From Candidatus Omnitrophota bacterium (GTDB lineage Bacteria; Omnitrophota; Gorgyraeia; B26-G9): DNA of 64,000 nt. Made by a program: the position numbers and the translations under genes. Position 1 is the stretch's first letter, and each line of letters opens with the position of its first letter. A model generated the notes under the pieces. The model was not told the DNA's origin. It made no database searches and saw nothing but the letters and a program-made list of their open reading frames with translations. Positions 4,382 through 64,000 of this stretch are shown one piece after another. The stretch is from positions 1,340 to 65,339 of the forward strand of contig JBDRJV010000010.1 in NCBI GenBank assembly GCA_043814605.1. The letters run 5' to 3'.

Positions 4382-4933
4382 ATGCAGATCATTACAGGTT
4401 TTTTAAAAAGCCGCACAATAAAAATCCCTAAATCAAAACTTATCCGGCCTACTTCAGGTAAAGTTAGAAAAGCGATATTTGATATTTTAGGTGATTTTAT
4501 TATCAAAAAAAATGTATTGGATTTATTTAGCGGCAGTGGAGCGTTAGGGCTTGAAGCATTAAGCAGCGGGGCTGAAAGTGTGACTTTTGTGGAAAAAAAT
4601 CAGTTTTTTGTGAAAGTGATTAAAGAAAATGCCAAAAATTTAGTTTTAGGCAAAAATACGCAGGTTTTTGGATGTGATGTATTTGAGGCACTTAATATAT
4701 TAGCAAGAAAAAAAATAAGTTTTGAAATAATTTTTATCGACCCGCCTTACTATCGAGATTTGGCAAAAAAATGCTTGCTCGAAATCAGCAAGTATGATAT
4801 AGTACATCCACTTGGAATCGTAGTGGCAGAACACCATAAAAAAGATGAATTGCCGGAAAACTGTAATTCGCTAACACGTTGGAAATACAAAAAATATGGA
4901 GATACTTTTGTCTCTTTTTATTCCTACTCATAG
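4382..4933 (+). CDS. rsmD: 16S rRNA (guanine966-N2)-methyltransferase RsmD
   Basis: Motif LDLFSGSGALGLEALSSGA and a DPPY motif (N6/N2-MTase), over 183 aa. Confidence 0.75.
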   Translation: MQIITGFLKSRTIKIPKSKLIRPTSGKVRKAIFDILGDFIIKKNVLDLFSGSGALGLEALSSGAESVTFVEKNQFFVKVIKENAKNLVLGKNTQVFGCDVFEALNILARKKISFEIIFIDPPYYRDLAKKCLLEISKYDIVHPLGIVVAEHHKKDELPENCNSLTRWKYKKYGDTFVSFYSYS

Positions 4934-7735: not shown

Positions 7736-8175
7736 AGATAAATTTAAATGAAATTCCTAAGGATGGGATAGTATTAAAAGAAACGAAGGCTGCCCCGGAT
7801 TTGGATATTGAGCGAGATGATTTTGAATTTTACGGTCCGGTTACAATTATTTCTGATATTAATCGAGACCATGATAATGTACAGATTTTGATTAATATTG
7901 AAGGAGAAATAAGGTTTACTTGTGCGCGTTGTTTAAGTCCGTTACGGCAGATAATAAAAAGGGAAGTAAAAATATTTAAAACTCTAAAAGAAGAAAGATC
8001 TGTTGATTTGACTCAAATTGCCAGAGAAGAAATTATATTAGGGTATCCTTTAAAATTATTGTGTAATGATAAATGTAAAGGCTTGTGTCCAATTTGCGGG
8101 ATTAATTTGAATAAAAGCCAGTGTGATTGTAAACCTCAGGAGATGTCTTCCGGAGGGATAAATATTGATATTTAA
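7732..8175 (+). CDS. yceD: YceD/DUF177 large-subunit-associated protein
   Basis: C-terminal CxxC...CxC cluster. Conserved position upstream of rpmF-plsX. Confidence 0.65.
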   Translation: MKINLNEIPKDGIVLKETKAAPDLDIERDDFEFYGPVTIISDINRDHDNVQILINIEGEIRFTCARCLSPLRQIIKREVKIFKTLKEERSVDLTQIAREEIILGYPLKLLCNDKCKGLCPICGINLNKSQCDCKPQEMSSGGINIDI

Positions 8176-43545: not shown

Positions 43546-43974
43546 GGGGGTGAAAGGGTTCGACTTAAGTGGATTAAGTAAGAGCAGCATGTCGAGGTGG
43601 TCGGGAGGCCTCGTTAAACACCTGGCAAAAAAATAAACGCTAAAACTGAAGTTCCAGCTAGCGTGGATGCACTTCTTGAAAAAATCGGAACGGGCATTGC
43701 TCATCCGACATTTTCCGGAATGCTTCCAACACCAGTGTTGTTTTAAAATAAAACAACCCGCTTTTTTATCTGCGCCTGCGGGGTAGAAAAGCGTCATCAG
43801 CAGGATCGTCCCGCCGCCTAGCTTTTAGCGGGCGGGATTAAACCCTTAAAAGCTGCCTTTTGAAATACCCTGTTTGCTGGGGATTTTAAAAGAAAGATTT
43901 ATAAACAGACTAAACATGTAGATACTCTTATTGGTTGCTTAAGGACGCGAGTTCAATTCTCGCCACCTCCACCA
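43546..43974 (+). ncRNA. ssrA: tmRNA (ssrA)
   Basis: 5' end GGGGGTGAAAGGGTTCGAC and 3' tRNA-like end GGACGCGAGTTCAATTCTCGCCACCTCCACCA (T-arm + acceptor + CCA). smpB is immediately upstream. A canonical ALAA-type tag reading frame could not be identified by eye. Confidence 0.75.
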
Positions 43975-53244: not shown

Positions 53245-53772
53245 ATGAAGATACTAAAAGATCCATTAACAAAAAATGATATTAAGAATCTAAAAGCTGG
53301 GCAGGAAATTGCCTACAGCGGAATTTTATATACAGCACGCGATCAAGCACATCAGCGTATTGTAAATATGCTTAAACATAAAAAAAAATTACCATTTTCT
53401 TTAAAAAATAAACTGATCTATTATTGCGGGCCTAACCCGGCACAAAAAGGAAGAGTGATCGGAGCTTGTGGTCCCACAACATCAAGCCGGATGGATGTGT
53501 TTACGCCAAAATTATATGAAAACGGAATATTAGGGACTCTGGGTAAAGGAGAAAGATCTAAAGAGGTAATCAAGGCAATAAAAAAATATAAAGGAATATA
53601 TTTTGTTACCTACGCTGGCTGCGGAGCTTTGTTATCAGAATATGTAGTAAATAAACGTTTAGTATGCTTTGCGGATTTAGGGACAGAAGCAGTGTTTGCT
53701 TTAGAAGTAAAAAATTTTCCTTTGATTGTGGGGATTGATACCAGGGGGGTAAATATTTATGAGTATCGTTAA
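53245..53772 (+). CDS. class I fumarate hydratase beta subunit
   Basis: YCGP.P....[10 protein letters not shown] consensus of the Fe-S hydro-lyase beta domain. Confidence 0.75.
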
Positions 53773-60017: not shown

Positions 60018-60093
60018 GGGCCGCTAGCTCATCTGGTAGAGCACCGCCCTTTTAAGGCGGTTGTGCTTGGTTCGAGACCAAGGCGGCTCACCA
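60018..60093 (+). tRNA. tRNA-Lys (anticodon UUU)
   Basis: Cloverleaf with anticodon loop CTTTTAA. T-arm TTCGAGA and CCA end. Confidence 0.8.
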
Positions 60094-60170: not shown

Positions 60171-60248
60171 GTCCCCATCGTCTAGTTAGGTCTAGGACAA
60201 CAGATTTTCGATCTGTCGACAGGGGTTCAAATCCCCTTGGGGACGCCA
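60171..60248 (+). tRNA. tRNA-Glu (anticodon UUC)
   Basis: Strong similarity to canonical tRNA-Glu (GTCCCC..TCTAG...GGGGTTCAAATCCCC..GGGACGCCA). Anticodon loop TTTTCGA. Confidence 0.8.
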
Positions 60249-60256
60249 TAAAAATA

Positions 60257-60290
60257 AAACCACCCATGCAATTCGGGTGGTTTTTATTTT
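60257..60290 (+). terminator. intrinsic terminator after tRNA-Glu
   Basis: AAACCACCC-loop-GGGTGGTTT followed by a T-rich tract. Confidence 0.6.
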
Positions 60291-60351
60291 TATCACCGTA
60301 GCTGGGATTTGAAGCAAGCGAACGCAGACCTTTTAGATTCTTGGATTCTAA

Positions 60352-61098
60352 TAGGGACAGCGACTATTTTATTGACTTTTTTTGCGATGATTTGTATTAT
60401 AATCATATGCCAAGAATAGCCAGATTAGTAGCCGTTGATTTGCCGCATCATATAACGCAGCGAGGTAATTATCAAAATGATATTTTTAAAGATGATGCAG
60501 ATAAGCAAATGTATATGGAGTTTATTTCTGAAGCGAGTAAGAAATTTGATCTTACAATACTAGCGTATTGCTTAATGAATAATCATGTTCATTTTATTGC
60601 AATCCCCCGAGAAGCAAATTCTTTAGCCAAAACCTTTAATACCGCCCACATGAGATATTCTCAATATTTTAATAAGAGACAAGGAGTAAAAGGGCATTTA
60701 TGGCAGGGAAGGTTTTACTCCTGTGTTTTAGATGAAGGACATTTTTTAGCCGCAATACGTTATATAGAAAGAAATCCTGTTCGGGCAAAGATAGTGAAGA
60801 AAGCCTGGGAATGGAAGTATTCTAGTGCGGGAGCGCATATTGGCAAAGATGAAAAATATTTAAATTCAGTAAAACAAATTTTTAAATATATTGATTTTAA
60901 TGAAAAAAGCTGGAAAGAGTACATCGAAAGGCAAGATAAAGAAGAAGATAAAAAGCAGATTAAAAAGCATACGATGAATGGCCGGCCTTTAGGAGAAGCC
61001 TCTTTTATTGCAAAATTAGAAAAAAACAGCGGAAGGCGATTACATGCTTTAGCTTGGGGAAGGCCTCCCAAAGCTAAATAAAATGGTCGCTGTCCCTA
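60352..61098 (+). mobile_element. compact IS200/IS605-family-like (Y1 HuH transposase / RAYT-like) element bounded by 13-bp perfect inverted repeats
   Basis: TAGGGACAGCGAC at 60352-60364 and its reverse complement GTCGCTGTCCCTA at 61086-61098 flank a single transposase ORF. Confidence 0.65.
60407..61081 (+). CDS. tnpA: Y1 (HuH) transposase, IS200-like / REP-associated tyrosine transposase-like (likely ATG 60407; ORF track TTG 60341)
   Basis: HuH motif LMNNHVHFIA and a catalytic-Tyr region (GHLWQGRFYS) typical of COG1943/Y1_Tnp. Confidence 0.75.
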   Translation: MPRIARLVAVDLPHHITQRGNYQNDIFKDDADKQMYMEFISEASKKFDLTILAYCLMNNHVHFIAIPREANSLAKTFNTAHMRYSQYFNKRQGVKGHLWQGRFYSCVLDEGHFLAAIRYIERNPVRAKIVKKAWEWKYSSAGAHIGKDEKYLNSVKQIFKYIDFNEKSWKEYIERQDKEEDKKQIKKHTMNGRPLGEASFIAKLEKNSGRRLHALAWGRPPKAK

Positions 61099-61103
61099 TT
61101 TAA

Positions 61104-61349
61104 CATGAAAATAGTATCGAATCGCTGGTTTCGTCTTTCGGCCGCAAAATAATAAAAAAAAATCTCAAACTTACACCCAAAGAGATCGAGATTTGCAATA
61201 TGGTCAAATTCGGCCTGACGACCAAGGAAATAACAAGTCTTTTAAATACTTCCTCTCTGACAATCGATAAACATCGCAGGAATATCCGCAGAAAACTCGG
61301 CCTTTCGCACAAGGATATAAACTTAACCTCTTATCTGCAAAGCCTTTAA
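61104..61349 (+). pseudogene. 5'-truncated LuxR/GerE-type HTH regulator fragment (C-terminal HTH only, no usable start)
   Basis: The open frame encodes LTPKEIEICNMVKFGLTTKEITSLLNTSSLTIDKHRRNIRRKLGL (LuxR_C HTH consensus). The frame opens 5 nt after the IS right inverted repeat. There is no ATG/GTG/TTG upstream of the HTH. Confidence 0.55.
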
Positions 61350-61698
61350 ATCAGTGATCCCAATAAAATCTTAATAGGTATTTCTTCACTAGTGTCCGGT
61401 TATAAGTTGAATAATTCTAGTTGGTTACAAGAATCAGTTAATTTGTTGTTGTATTCATAATCTGTAAGTAGTTGTAATATCGGCACTTTCTCAAAAATAG
61501 TAACACTAAAAATCTGTAAAATTGTGTAGAGATTTAACTTTATTTTTAGCTGTTTTTTGATAATTGCTATTAGCACATATATGGAAATAGCTATCCAAAT
61601 TTGGGTTTTCACCGCATTTTCTGATTTATTTGAAAAAAGGAGGATATTCAGGTATACTTTAGTGCTTATTAACTAAAGGAAAAAAATAGGGAAAAAAA

Positions 61699-63183
61699 GT
61701 GAAACTCACAGTAAATACTACTTTTAGAATAATTGCTATCTTTATTATTGCAACATTTTTAACGTTAGATATTGCCTGGGCTTATCCAGTTAATATCCAT
61801 AAGGATAATCTTACTACTGAGTGTCTTTCTCCCAAAGTAGCAATATTTGCAGATAGTTTTTCTTTTGCATACAACAATTTTTACACCTTAAAAAGCAAAA
61901 CCAATATAGAACAATCCTCATTCCTTACAAACAAAAATCAGATACAGAGAAAAAATCCTATAAAAAGACTGGTTTTGAAAATAATCCCTTTATTATTAGT
62001 TTCCTCACTCATATCTGGAATTGTAATATTCTATTTTGTCCCTGTTCTGGATATTGCTGTCTTAACCAAAGTCACGGGAATACTTATTGCCATAAATATC
62101 GGCTACGCAATTATCACAACTAGGACATTAAAAAAAGAAGGCATATTAGAACAGGGTTTTCTAAAAAATCCTTGGTCTCGGGCTTTATTAGTAAATTTTT
62201 CCATAGTTTCTTTGTACATCTTATACTTAATCGAGCTTTGCAATTTTCATGCATTACAGAAATTAGGATACTATCCTCATGAGATCAAGTCTCAAGCCTT
62301 ATATACTCTTACCGAACTTCAAGTATCTAGCGGCCTAATCAAAAACTTTTATAGTGAAGAAAATCTAGTCAAAAGTGCGTTTGAAAAAGCAAAAGATGAT
62401 TATCCCTATAAAAGACACTTATACGATATTAATGAGGTATTTGAAACAAATCGCGCTAATTGTTTAGGAAAAGCACAACTAGTTTATTCTGAATTAAAAG
62501 CATTAGGGTTAAATGTTGATTTAGTTTATCAATATCCTTATCATTATTTTGTCTTAGTTCATTATTCTAACGGAAAATCTCAAATTATTGATTCAAGCAT
62601 GCAATGGTTAAGCCCTATTTTTATTTTCAATAAAGCATATAAACAAATCGATGACGGATACAGCAAATACCAAGGCAATCAAACAAAAAAAGAATTTAAC
62701 AAAGATTATCAATACATCAAAATTTTAAAAAATGAAAATCAATTAAAATCAACCAAGCACTTAGCTTTTATTTTCAACTTATTGTCCTCGGGCTGGGAAA
62801 ACAAAGATCGAGAAAAATTAGAAGAAGCTATCAAACTATTAAAATCAACAATATCACTAGAAGGAGAGTCATTTGAAACCAGAATGACCATGGGAAGAAT
62901 TTTTTGGAGATTAGGCGATAACAATAATGCACGCATACATTTTAAAAAAGCAGAAAAAATCAGCCCTTCTTATTTTGAAGATGCAGCAAAAGAAGACAAA
63001 ATAAATATCCCTGCTCTTCGAAGATTAATGGGAAAATACAAAAAAAAGAAAAAACAACAGGCAAGCAAAGCAGATGCAGCCGCAAAAGATGAACCTTTTA
63101 TCCTGCCAAGTAGTATAGTAATATTTAGTAGAAAACAACAAAACTTACTGACGAGTAATACTCTTATATTCCAAGCAATTTAA
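61699..63183 (+). CDS. membrane-anchored protein with the conserved N-terminal module (4th paralog), transglutaminase-like Cys-His-Asp core candidate and TPR-like C-terminus
   Basis: N-terminus RIIAIFIIATFLTLDI...CLSPKV is homologous to the three giant proteins. NRANCLGKAQL...YHYFVLVHY...IIDSS matches the C-H-D order of transglutaminase-like peptidases. Confidence 0.4.
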   Translation: MKLTVNTTFRIIAIFIIATFLTLDIAWAYPVNIHKDNLTTECLSPKVAIFADSFSFAYNNFYTLKSKTNIEQSSFLTNKNQIQRKNPIKRLVLKIIPLLLVSSLISGIVIFYFVPVLDIAVLTKVTGILIAINIGYAIITTRTLKKEGILEQGFLKNPWSRALLVNFSIVSLYILYLIELCNFHALQKLGYYPHEIKSQALYTLTELQVSSGLIKNFYSEENLVKSAFEKAKDDYPYKRHLYDINEVFETNRANCLGKAQLVYSELKALGLNVDLVYQYPYHYFVLVHYSNGKSQIIDSSMQWLSPIFIFNKAYKQIDDGYSKYQGNQTKKEFNKDYQYIKILKNENQLKSTKHLAFIFNLLSSGWENKDREKLEEAIKLLKSTISLEGESFETRMTMGRIFWRLGDNNNARIHFKKAEKISPSYFEDAAKEDKINIPALRRLMGKYKKKKKQQASKADAAAKDEPFILPSSIVIFSRKQQNLLTSNTLIFQAI

Positions 63184-63475
63184 TTTTAATACATGTTTAG
63201 CGAATATTTGTACATTAAAAAAATAGTTAATTATTCCAACATGCTTTACTTGATATAACTCTCAAAAACTCTATTACTTAACCGTATCTTATATTCCTCG
63301 ATTTCGCTCAGGATAAGTTTTTTCGCCGCCGCAATTTTGATAGAACTTGCCTAAAACTTTCCCTCGATATACAATATACCCGCTGTATAAATTAAAAATT
63401 TCAAATAATTTCAAATTACGAATTGCTTGACAAAATAATTTGTTATGGTAATTTATTACCATAACCATGGTGAAA

Positions 63476-64000
63476 AGATGATATCCTTACGTTCAAAAGT
63501 GACAATAAAATTACTGGATTACTATTTTCTCAATCCTGAAGCGCAAGTCTACATTAATGAGCTGGCAAGGATTTTGGAACTTGATCCCAAGAATACTGAA
63601 ACCAAGCTTAAAGAGATGGAAAAAGAAGGCCTCTTTAAGAGCGAATTCCGCGGAAAACAAAGGTATTTTTTCCTTGCAAAAGATAATCCGGTTTTAAAGC
63701 ATTACCGTCAGATTTTCCTGAAAACCTACGGCATAGAAAAGAGGCTCAAAGACGCGTTAAGCGGTATTAAAGGGCTCAGGGAAGCGTACCTGTTTGGTTC
63801 ATACGCGAGCAATAAGATGGATTCTTCAAGCGACATCGATCTTTTAGCCATTGGCACGCATTCTGTTTTGGAATTACAAAGAGTCGCCACTAAATGGCAG
63901 AAAGATACGGGCCGGGAATTTAATGTAACAAACCTAAACTCGCAGGAATTTGCGGCAAAGAAAAAAGACAAGAACCATTTTATAAATAGCGTCTTTAAAA
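63476..64000 (+). CDS. winged-HTH + minimal nucleotidyltransferase (MNT-like) domain protein, 3'-partial (runs off window)
   Basis: The N-terminus is a wHTH. GSYASN...SSDIDLLA is the GS-x9-DxD NTase-fold motif. No stop occurs before the window end. Confidence 0.45.

Follow-up and report, generated by a model that had tools for sequence, protein, structure and literature searches.

The 64-kb window that we analysed, i.e. the whole stretch of Omnitrophota DNA, carries a compact gene for a HUH-Y1 transposase-like protein bounded by terminal inverted repeats (TIRs), followed by the 3′ end of a LuxR-type regulator gene and by the tail of an IS4-family transposase gene (Table 1). Upstream lies a conserved block, tsf-pyrH-frr-tRNA-Lys-tRNA-Glu, which is common to the window and to three related loci (L086-L088), and the synteny with these relatives detected by tblastx ends at ~60262. 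The hairpin that follows tRNA-Glu probably terminates transcription of the tRNA operon, and the two tRNAs were the only Rfam matches in the locus. The IS4 fragment, which begins 50 nt beyond the LuxR stop codon, has 1441 homologues (the best of them 81% identical), matches PF01609 and is named ‘IS4 transposase’ in its relatives; a tblastn search of plasmids with this fragment returned nothing. The stretch from 61400 to 63400 is AT-richer. Beyond the tRNA-Glu terminator the DNA is variable, and this patch holds the repeat-bounded unit together with the LuxR tail and the IS4 tail. The initial annotation had placed the insertion after tRNA-Glu, and this is correct as a position, as the tRNA ends 101 nt to the left of the repeat, but tRNA adjacency was rejected as a trait of the family: among 60 loci, L037 alone has a tRNA within ~250 nt.

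Table 1. Features of the locus, with positions numbered from the first nucleotide of the window
Feature	Position	Strand	Details
tRNA-Lys(UUU)	60018..60093	+	ARAGORN, Rfam
tRNA-Glu(UUC)	60171..60248	+	ARAGORN, Rfam; synteny with relatives ends with this gene
G+C-rich hairpin between T/A runs	60256..60284	.	Terminator-like in scan; analogous hairpin in relatives
Short inverted copy of tRNA-Glu T-arm (GGGATTTGAA)	60304..60313	-	Longer in relatives L087/L088, at the same place
Whole TIRtron unit, TIR to TIR	60350..61101	+	752 bp; blastn with L001
TIR-L (left terminal inverted repeat)	60350..60380	+	Core GGGACAGCGAC = 60354-60364
Sigma-70-like promoter of Y1 gene	60372..60400	+	TTGACT, 17 nt, TATTAT; 10/12 matches
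HUH-Y1 gene of TIRYT/RAYT-group-1 type	60407..61081	+	224 aa, intact
TIR-R (right terminal inverted repeat)	61070..61100	-	Core reverse complement = 61086-61096
PAS-LuxR regulator 3′ fragment (probable pseudogene remnant)	61104..61349	+	81 codons; GerE HTH only
IS4-family DDE transposase C-terminal fragment	61400..61672	-	~90 codons; convergent with LuxR fragment
494-aa ORF	61699..63183	+	Weak TPR and transglutaminase-like matches; AT-richer stretch; not syntenic with relatives

A compact Y1 element with perfect inverted repeats of 13 bp had been noted at the outset, and these can be read directly in the sequence as TAGGGACAGCGAC at 60352-60364 on the forward strand and as its reverse complement GTCGCTGTCCCTA at 61086-61098. 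This description proved to be an understatement, since a repeat search extended the pair to 31 nt with 87% complementarity, of which 15 nt are perfect (60350-60364 and 61086-61100); the right repeat overlaps the Y1 gene around its stop codon. With up to two mismatches allowed, the 13-mer occurs at only two sites in the 64-kb window, and shuffled sequences gave a mean of 0.28 matches. A candidate extra copy, TAGGGACAG at 53678, was discarded as a chance match within a coding region. As no further copy of the repeat or of the Y1 gene was found in the window and the closest relative of the Y1 protein is 67-68% identical, nothing points to recent activity in this genome. When the single TIR arm of the window was folded as single-stranded DNA it showed hardly any structure (-0.8 kcal/mol, z -0.4), so recognition of a hairpin, as for REPs, is doubtful at these arms; within the family a good arm hairpin is seen only in GCGCC variants, e.g. 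L056.

Comparison with homologous loci carries most of the argument for a discrete element. We compared 80 homologous loci, which come from many phyla, and 42 of them have the same core GGGACAGCGAC, with no more than two mismatches, inverted on both sides of the gene at fixed distances. It is this conservation that speaks decisively against a chance pairing of the repeats; the family consensus is aaAataGGGACAGcgaCcatTTtttt. Most of 55 loci have 42-47 nt between the core and the ATG, and the right core lies 3-72 nt past the stop codon. The blastn match between the window and L001 (74.7% over 755 nt) begins at 60350 and stops at 61101. Likewise, DNA homology between loci of different species ends at the repeat edges and the flanks are unrelated, with homology in 17 locus pairs extending no more than 10 nt past the left repeat and no more than 17 nt past the right one. 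In addition, one MAG carries two copies on separate contigs (L044 and L050) that share 95.3% identity over the stretch from -6 to +4 relative to the cores and stand in different contexts, so that the TIR-to-TIR box behaves as a discrete unit. The view that this is a discrete element with terminal inverted repeats is thus supported both by the repeat pair and by the edges of homology. Solo or inverted-doublet copies of the repeat are dispersed in some genomes (L027, L006, L071 and L013), and the taxonomic distribution of the Y1 homologues is patchy. No relatives of the LuxR fragment, the IS4 fragment or the 494-aa ORF were found beside other members of the family.

The left end of the unit also carries a promoter-like sequence. 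Its -35 box starts 7 nt past the core of TIR-L, and the ATG follows 6 nt past the -10 box, so that the predicted mRNA would be almost leaderless. The motif TTGAC lies 7-12 nt past the core at 37 of 55 left ends, as against two of 49 right ends. A left repeat set against the -35 box with a spacing that is constant across phyla might be expected of a domesticated, immobile host gene whose repeats are operator or regulatory sites and whose position next to LuxR is coincidental. Such a reading would also suit the single copy in the window and the base composition of the gene (GC 0.35, compared with 0.34 for the host), and it accords with the literature, in which RAYTs are regarded as domesticated and formal proof of mobility is absent (PMC5581495, PMC6006769). 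We nevertheless consider it unlikely, as a role as operator fails to explain the equally conserved right copy past the stop codon, and the halt of homology at the repeat edges between unrelated flanks, the two 95%-identical copies in one MAG, the dispersed solo and doublet repeats and the patchy taxonomic spread all argue against it.

In its sequence and predicted structure, the Y1 protein itself resembles RAYT/TnpAREP proteins far more than IS200 TnpA. It matches Pfam Y1_Tnp with 57 bits, and its best-scoring NCBIfam model is REP_Tyr_transpos (NF047646), with a score of 71.5 bits that lies below the cut-off of 80; the IS200 model (NF033573) gave 23.1 bits against a cut-off of 55. The sole sequence match in the PDB was TnpAREP (4ER8), and the same structure was the best fold match of the AlphaFold model (pLDDT 84; 4er8_A, E 5e-8), with IS608 TnpA next. 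The motifs NHVH, WQ, YIERNP and SS (SS139-140) are all present, HVH and the YIERNP tyrosine are conserved, and every family-invariant residue is kept in the protein from the window. It ends in a conserved, helical C-terminal extension of ~80 aa (helices at 155-208, pLDDT mostly >70), in which no Pfam HTH was matched at E<=5 in 22 members. An identical protein in the NCBI database (P0001) sits on an Omnitrophota contig, and the homologues number more than 6,900. Searches of plasmids and phages returned distant homologues only, at most 32% identical.

These results bear directly on whether the unit is a classical IS200/IS605 element with TnpA only, inserted into a LuxR gene by the ‘peel and paste’ route. 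The Pfam Y1_Tnp match, fold matches to IS608, ISDra2 and IS200 TnpA (E 1e-4 to 1e-6) and a compact element adjoining a broken gene are all compatible with it, and the unit shares with IS608 and ISDra2 the HUH/Y1 catalytic fold, its small size and the lack of a visible target-site duplication. However, besides the low IS200 score, the motifs read NHVH and YIERNP instead of DH[VI]H and Y[IV]ENQ, there is no tnpB, and the 64-kb window holds a single copy. IS200/IS605 transposition requires both hairpins on one strand, whereas the ends in the window are inverted copies on opposite strands. Although the window does contain a subterminal hairpin (61053-61081, -16 kcal/mol, z -2.2), there is no conserved subterminal hairpin in the family, where the median z was -0.6 and six of 43 loci fell below -2. 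An IS200/IS605 identity, already largely ruled out by these points, is in our view highly improbable, and the RAYT- or REPtron-like affinity proposed in the initial annotation is upheld.

We conclude that the unit is a TIRtron, i.e. that its gene is a TIRYT, and that it belongs to a class that has already been published under three names: TIRtron/TIRYT (Di Nocera, De Gregorio and Rocco 2013, BMC Genomics 14:522; PMC3733652), TnpAY1 subclass 2.1 (Quentin, Siguier, Chandler and Fichant 2018; PMC6006769) and RAYT Group 1 (Bertels et al. 2017; PMC5581495). Its architecture is not new, and the locus is one more ordinary example. As in the TIRtrons first described, a RAYT-like tyrosine transposase gene is flanked by TIRs instead of REP hairpins, the spacing between TIRs and coding sequence is roughly constant, and solo, dimeric and clustered TIRs are moderately abundant in some genomes (here L027, L006 and L071; PMC3733652). 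The published TIR consensus, GGGGWSAS (PMC3733652), agrees with AGGGACAG of the window at seven of eight positions, with A for the first G, the matching form being (A/G)GGGACAG, and GGGGACAG is carried by L004, L006, L028 and L048. The window differs in that dispersed TIR copies are absent from it and in its host phylum, Omnitrophota, which like other uncultivated groups was unsampled in that study (PMC3733652). The longer core, the -35 box next to it and the limits of homology come from the present comparison and not from that source (PMC3733652).

The motifs lead to the same assignment. Subclass 2.1 is characterized by NHVH, W[EQ], a Y motif that reads YIELNP or Y[IV]HLNP, and an SS motif placed proximally in the extension (PMC6006769), and the protein from the window shares with it NHVH, WQ, the class-2 Y---NP, an SS that follows the core, and a C-terminal extension that is likewise long (PMC6006769), at a length of 224 aa compared with a median of 238. 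Low copy number and a wide, patchy spread over phyla are likewise shared with subclass 2.1 and RAYT Group 1, for which the authors found typical REP hairpins to be absent (PMC6006769; PMC5581495). The Y motif differs, YIERNP being one residue off the listed YIELNP and Y[IV]HLNP. As for the likeness of the subclass 2.1 C-terminus to HTH domains (Bac_DnaA_C, HTH_23 or HTH_28), the window protein has the conserved helical extension and gave no such match in Pfam. E. coli TnpAREP and its REPtron (Ton-Hoang 2012, PMC3333891; Messing 2012, PDB 4ER8, PMC3479197) provide the best sequence and fold match, and there, too, cognate repeats flank the gene in inverted orientation and nicking and rejoining of single-stranded DNA are expected. 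In contrast with the E. coli system, the window has no GTAG-tagged stable palindromes, its arms barely fold, only two flanking copies are present in 64 kb in place of a high-copy REP family, and the protein has an extra C-terminal domain of ~80 aa. The 5′ GT[AG]G tag of canonical RAYT/REPtron systems (subclass 2.2) is absent from the repeats of the window.

Immediately beyond the right repeat, a TAA at 61101-61103 precedes the open LuxR frame, which scores 39.5 bits with the Pfam GerE/LuxR HTH and has its first ATG, GTG or TTG at 61200. The PAS-LuxR regulator of which it is a fragment has ~270 aa, and this complete architecture is not present at the ORF in the window. A conserved segment further upstream is common to LuxR homologues of 110-133 aa, L081 shows the full architecture with a PAS domain ahead of the LuxR HTH, and tblastn homology of the LuxR relatives to the window begins only at 61107-61116, from 6 nt past the right repeat. 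The ORF is probably a pseudogene remnant, and the earlier view of it as the 3′ end of a longer gene without a canonical start is borne out by these PAS-LuxR relatives and the late first start codon. An alternative is that the ORF is an intact HTH-only regulator of ~80 aa with a non-canonical start: 81 codons without an internal stop have persisted in an AT-rich genome, and 82-aa proteins (P0121 and P0122) with 68-69% identity are encoded on three contigs with no IS nearby. We regard this as improbable, because the stretch 61104-61199 contains none of the codons ATG, GTG and TTG, a start at 61200 would lose the first GerE helix, and the longer relatives retain the upstream segment or, in L081, the PAS domain. 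HTH-only ORFs that stand without an IS do exist (L082-L084), so that the refuting case named in the initial annotation formally occurs, but the copy in L082 is itself truncated: its homology to longer relatives (KYVD, LKI) continues ahead of the annotated start and reaches the last part of the adjacent gene.

How the regulator gene was broken is a separate matter. The gene breaks off at the outer edge of the right repeat, which fits the original proposal that the insertion destroyed the 5′ part of the gene; the missing part is, however, not on the left flank. The LuxR N-terminal part (PAS and linker, the 5′ two-thirds of the gene) was absent from the left flank and the whole window by tblastn, which gave nothing on that flank even at E<=10. 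The left flank consists of the tRNA-Glu terminator region, which is common to the relatives. Because of in-frame stops at 60249 and 60255, a LuxR remnant there could have at most 31 codons (60258-60350), 12 of which are within the terminator. The segment 60294-60349 was tried as a LuxR upstream piece, as its ‘ADLL’ resembles the ‘xDLL’ of relatives, and this resemblance was treated as chance; part of the segment aligns with the post-tRNA region of the relatives. Since the LuxR 5′ part is missing from the left side, at least one further deletion or rearrangement is needed, and simple insertion alone does not explain the truncation. Aligning the locus with relatives that lack the insertion did not recover an intact LuxR gene, as these relatives keep the tRNA block and then continue into unrelated DNA. 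No empty-site allele was recovered, the Frr-anchored metagenome loci (73-76% identical) having unrelated DNA after tRNA-Glu.

The loss could also be due to the IS4 element or to a deletion of unrelated origin, with the LuxR gene cut by IS4 or by rearrangement of a tRNA-adjacent island and the TIRtron arriving at, or being carried to, the junction later. The absence of the LuxR 5′ part from the left flank and the window, the IS4 remnant 50 nt past the LuxR stop, the break in synteny just past tRNA-Glu and the AT-richer stretch from 61400 to 63400 all speak for such a history. On the other hand, the breakpoint within 6 nt of the outer edge of the right repeat would then be a coincidence, and the IS4 fragment stands at the intact 3′ end of LuxR and not at its broken 5′ end. 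We hold truncation by another cause to be a possibility of some weight, if not a probable one, and the evidence for a part played by the TIRtron is circumstantial.

On our preferred reading, the DNA substrate that the Y1 protein recognizes would be the core, just as REPs are recognized by TnpAREP, and its HUH motif and catalytic tyrosine would cut and rejoin single-stranded DNA at the core, a cleavage, strand included, that we infer by analogy with E. coli TnpAREP and IS608. Such a reaction may occasionally place copies of the repeats, or of the entire box, elsewhere, and binding at the left repeat would probably throttle the adjacent promoter as well. For the regulator, the history that we consider most likely begins with the arrival of the unit in the LuxR gene, or its recombination there, after which a deletion or rearrangement to the left of the unit would have removed the LuxR 5′ part. 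Taken as a whole, this explanation, which combines TIRtron identity with the proposed enzyme activity and LuxR history, seems to us the likely one. We know of no functional study of the TIRtron class since its naming. A bolder interpretation, that TIRtrons are autonomous mobile TIR-to-TIR boxes across phyla and that the present locus has been caught breaking a host regulator, is offered only tentatively and we incline against it. If it were true, the 11-nt core and left-end promoter would make up a universal self-regulating transposition module, and the iterated terminal motifs outside some copies would be footprints of strand-transfer chemistry.

For annotation, these findings mean that the Y1 gene should be described as encoding a TIR-associated RAYT-like Y1 enzyme and not an IS200/IS605 transposase, and that the ORFs for LuxR and IS4 should carry a fragment label. 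The locus itself adds one further example only to the class, for which the common 11-nt core on both sides, the -35 box fused to the left repeat and homology that stops at the repeats provide handles for biochemistry.

The start of the Y1 gene was placed at ATG 60407 because its homologues all begin MPR..., giving a product of 224 aa that is identical to an NCBI protein of a Candidatus Omnitrophota MAG, its nearest non-identical homologue being just 67–68% identical. Homologues number more than 6,900, differ very little in length and occur in Omnitrophota, Planctomycetota, Nitrospirota, Desulfobacterota and Firestonebacteria, among other groups. The window protein scored 57 bits with Pfam Y1_Tnp, 71.5 bits with the NCBIfam REP-associated tyrosine transposase (RAYT) model (slightly below the cut-off of 80) and 23 bits with the NCBIfam IS200/IS605 TnpA model (cut-off 55). 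A profile built from 22 family members had E. coli TnpAREP (4ER8) as its sole match of solved structure, and the AlphaFold model of the window protein (mean pLDDT 84) gave 4er8_A as its best fold match (E 5e-8), ahead of the IS608, ISDra2 and IS200 transposases. We also identified the motifs NHVH (HuH), WQ and YIERNP (with the catalytic tyrosine and the class-2 signature Y---NP), together with an SS pair that is invariant and, at the C-terminus, a conserved helical extension of ~80 residues. The initial annotation had regarded the element as REPtron-like rather than IS200-like, and the model scores and best structure uphold this.

The 13-bp perfect inverted repeat reported around this gene, TAGGGACAGCGAC at 60352–60364 with its reverse complement at 61086–61098, was confirmed in the sequence and proved to be longer, with 15 perfect nt and 31 nt at 87% complementarity. 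Only the two flanking sites match the 13-mer with ≤2 mismatches in the 64-kb window (shuffles, mean 0.28 matches), which holds one Y1 gene and two repeats, a single ORF lying between the arms, and no dispersed copy of either repeat or gene elsewhere. The gene has a GC content of 0.35 compared with 0.34 for the window, and its predicted promoter (TTGACT, 17 nt, TATTAT) leaves an almost zero leader ahead of the ATG. Single arms form weak hairpins (−0.8 kcal/mol, z −0.4). A strong hairpin (13-bp stem, −16 kcal/mol, z −2.2) takes in the final Y1 codons and spans the stop codon; it showed no conservation across the family.

Positions of features in the window
Feature	Position	Strand	Remark
tmRNA gene	43546–43974		predicted by ARAGORN; tag peptide unusually short (APAG*)
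tRNA-Lys	60018–60093		upstream of unit
tRNA-Glu	60171–60248		upstream of unit; 101 nt to left arm
Probable tRNA-Glu terminator hairpin	60256–60284
Inverted tRNA-Glu T-arm copy	60304–60313		GGGATTTGAA
Unit	60350–61101
Perfect repeat, 15 nt	60350–60364 / 61086–61100
Imperfect repeat, 31 nt	60350–60380 / 61070–61100
Predicted Y1 promoter	60372–60400
Y1 gene	60407–61081	+	stop codon 61079–61081
Strong hairpin	61053–61081
LuxR frame	61104–61349	+	straight after TAA 61101–61103
IS4-family DDE transposase fragment	61400–61672	−	last ~90 codons; PF01609; best match 81% identical

Such repeats characterise the family. The flanks of homologue genes in 80 fetched genomic loci were searched for the core. 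In 42 of the 80, the gene is flanked on either side by the core GGGACAGCGAC (≤2 mismatches) in inverted orientation; the variants are GCGCC, GACAC, GTCAC and GCCAC, and the consensus over both ends is aaAataGGGACAGcgaCcatTTtttt. Spacing is rigid: in most loci 42–47 nt separate the end of the left core from the ATG, a TTGAC −35 box lies 7–12 nt past the core at 37 of 55 left ends compared with two of 49 right ends, and the right core follows the stop codon by 3–72 nt (median 18). The arms fold well in the GCGCC variants only (for example locus L056, −6 kcal/mol, z −3.5), and no subterminal hairpin inside the ends is conserved across the family. In several members the outermost 7–12 nt of the repeat are iterated two to four times just beyond the repeats, as with 'gagaaactagg' ×4 in L050 (3900–3945; mirrored at the right side, 4717–4745) and 'gtctaactag' ×4 in L066 (3900–3944), and likewise in the left flanks of L049, L055, L008, L018, L004, L005, L046 and L060. 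These iterated motifs could be extra binding sites or strand-transfer footprints; we found no description of them in the passages on this class that the literature search returned.

The window element belongs to the TIRtron/RAYT Group 1 class, which is already known, and its architecture is thus not the novelty it had seemed. Di Nocera et al. 2013 (PMC3733652) coined the name TIRtron for a RAYT-like gene that has terminal inverted repeats (TIRs) on its flanks in place of REPs, and TIRYT for the protein encoded; they report a common TIR motif, GGGGWSAS, and similar distances of the TIRs to the coding sequence, and mention moderately abundant TIR families that form dimers or clusters in some genomes. 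Quentin et al. 2018 (PMC6006769) assign 20 of those 26 TIRYTs to TnpAY1 subclass 2.1. Its members carry the motifs NHVH, W[EQ], YIELNP or Y[IV]HLNP, and SS, have an HTH-like extension at the C-terminus and reach a median of 238 aa; the subclass is recorded without REP and is treated as equivalent to Group 1 in the RAYT classification of Bertels et al. 2017, whose paper (PMC5581495) gives this group the widest distribution among RAYTs. Because the window protein carries the subclass 2.1 motifs and the core identified in this work, (A/G)GGGACAG..., agrees with the TIR motif, we regard the element as a new member of this class, differing solely in having R where the Y motif has L, and in an extension without a Pfam-detectable HTH. 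IS200/IS605 identity was rejected on the sub-threshold TnpA score together with this assignment. Our literature search turned up no functional studies of the class since 2018.

When all loci were compared at the DNA level together with 600 nt of flanking sequence, homology between them ended at the repeats. The window and the Omnitrophota locus L001 are 74.7% identical over 755 nt, covering exactly the unit, and L044 and L050, from two contigs of one Pirellulales MAG (binning being a caveat on their sharing a genome), are 95.3% identical over 785 nt with unrelated flanks, the alignment starting 6 nt ahead of the left core and finishing 4 nt beyond the right one. Across 17 pairs with sufficient flanking sequence, alignments extended ≤10 nt beyond the left core and ≤17 nt beyond the right core; the locus comparison revealed no visible target-site duplication. 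An Omnitrophota MAG locus, L027, has three intergenic inverted doublets of the core within 8 kb (1961–1995, 2767–2819 and 7956–7994), and L071 (3273–3308) and L006 (7340–7437) have one inverted doublet each. The intergenic doublets are REPIN-like, the flanking repeat having multiplied there as in a REP family. In addition, L013 has two extra solo left ends including the TTGACC −35 box (1379 and 3084) upstream of its complete unit; these solo ends could act as portable promoters. Such extra copies would be expected if the protein uses the repeat as substrate and the unit or its ends are occasionally copied, which is comparative evidence and not proof of transposition.

Past the right repeat, the initial annotation had described a headless LuxR gene, and this holds: the frame encodes a GerE/LuxR HTH alone (39.5 bits, Pfam), and its earliest ATG, GTG or TTG, at 61200, would remove the first helix of the GerE domain. 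The closest proteins are 82–133 aa, and the longer ones share the conserved segment IKDD..ANV..L..P..., which precedes the position at which the window frame opens. As the relative L081 has a 145-aa PAS ORF ahead of its LuxR part with only a frameshift between (ALERKNTALTEVLEHIE... running on in the LuxR frame), the full-length type is PAS–linker–LuxR of roughly 270 aa. In tblastn of LuxR relatives against the window, just their last 77–80 residues aligned, from 61107–61116, so that homology begins 6–15 nt past the final base of the unit, and neither their N-terminal parts nor the PAS domain matched anywhere in the 64 kb. In all likelihood, the window ORF is the remnant of a gene. The 82-aa gene calls P0121 and P0122 were considered as natural HTH-only proteins and rejected, since in L082 the match to longer relatives (KYVD, LKI) carries on upstream of the TTG called as start and reaches into the final part of a sigma-54 activator gene. 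The L082 copy (2207–2512; also in L083 and L084), 26 nt behind that gene, is a truncated PAS-LuxR copy called as an 82-aa protein, and represents a second, independent truncation.

The proposal that insertion destroyed the 5′ part of this gene stands only in part. The break falls at the outer edge of the right repeat, a fit that favours a link to the unit, yet simple insertion is too simple an account because the 5′ part would remain on the other side, where it is absent. Once the terminator and T-arm copy are counted, ~30 nt remain of the stretch between tRNA-Glu and the left repeat. The short T-arm copy lies beyond the terminator, and the syntenic relatives L087 and L088 have an inverted copy of ~19 nt (T-arm plus part of the acceptor stem) just past their tRNA-Glu terminators; it could be an attachment-site relic or part of a bidirectional terminator. 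Relatives with Frr 73–76% identical keep tsf-pyrH-frr-tRNA-Lys-tRNA-Glu with unrelated genes beyond, and window 60249–64000 found no match in them; our search found no related genome close enough to show the pre-truncation state. The IS4 fragment, a second piece of mobile-element debris, lies 50 nt beyond the LuxR stop codon. It converges on the LuxR fragment and is 5′-truncated beside a 494-aa TPR/transglutaminase-like ORF, which lies in AT-richer DNA and has no counterpart in the syntenic relatives. GC content is 0.27–0.31 over 61400–63400 compared with the window mean of 0.34, and GC skew switches sign near 61000. From the loss of synteny, the IS4 fragment and the AT-richer ORF, the region past tRNA-Glu is therefore a variable patch holding debris of several events. 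Our preferred reading is that the unit inserted into the LuxR gene or recombined there, with a subsequent deletion or rearrangement to its left removing the rest; possibly, an unrelated truncation came first and the unit arrived later, and we consider the chances that the unit was involved at all to be about even.

Sequence comparison shows an intact HUH/Y1 enzyme, a conserved, presumably cognate site in inverted orientation on both sides, a predicted promoter joined directly to the left site, homology limits like those of a unit and, in some genomes, dispersed repeats. By analogy with TnpAREP and IS608, the enzyme would nick and rejoin single-stranded DNA at or beside the core via a 5′-phosphotyrosine intermediate. 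IS608 is excised as a single-strand circle, whereas the TIRtron sites are inverted, with one site per strand in a given orientation, so that one-strand excision is not directly applicable and moving the unit would require either cleavage of both strands or replication. The adjoining promoter may be repressed when the enzyme binds the left site, perhaps through its C-terminal domain.
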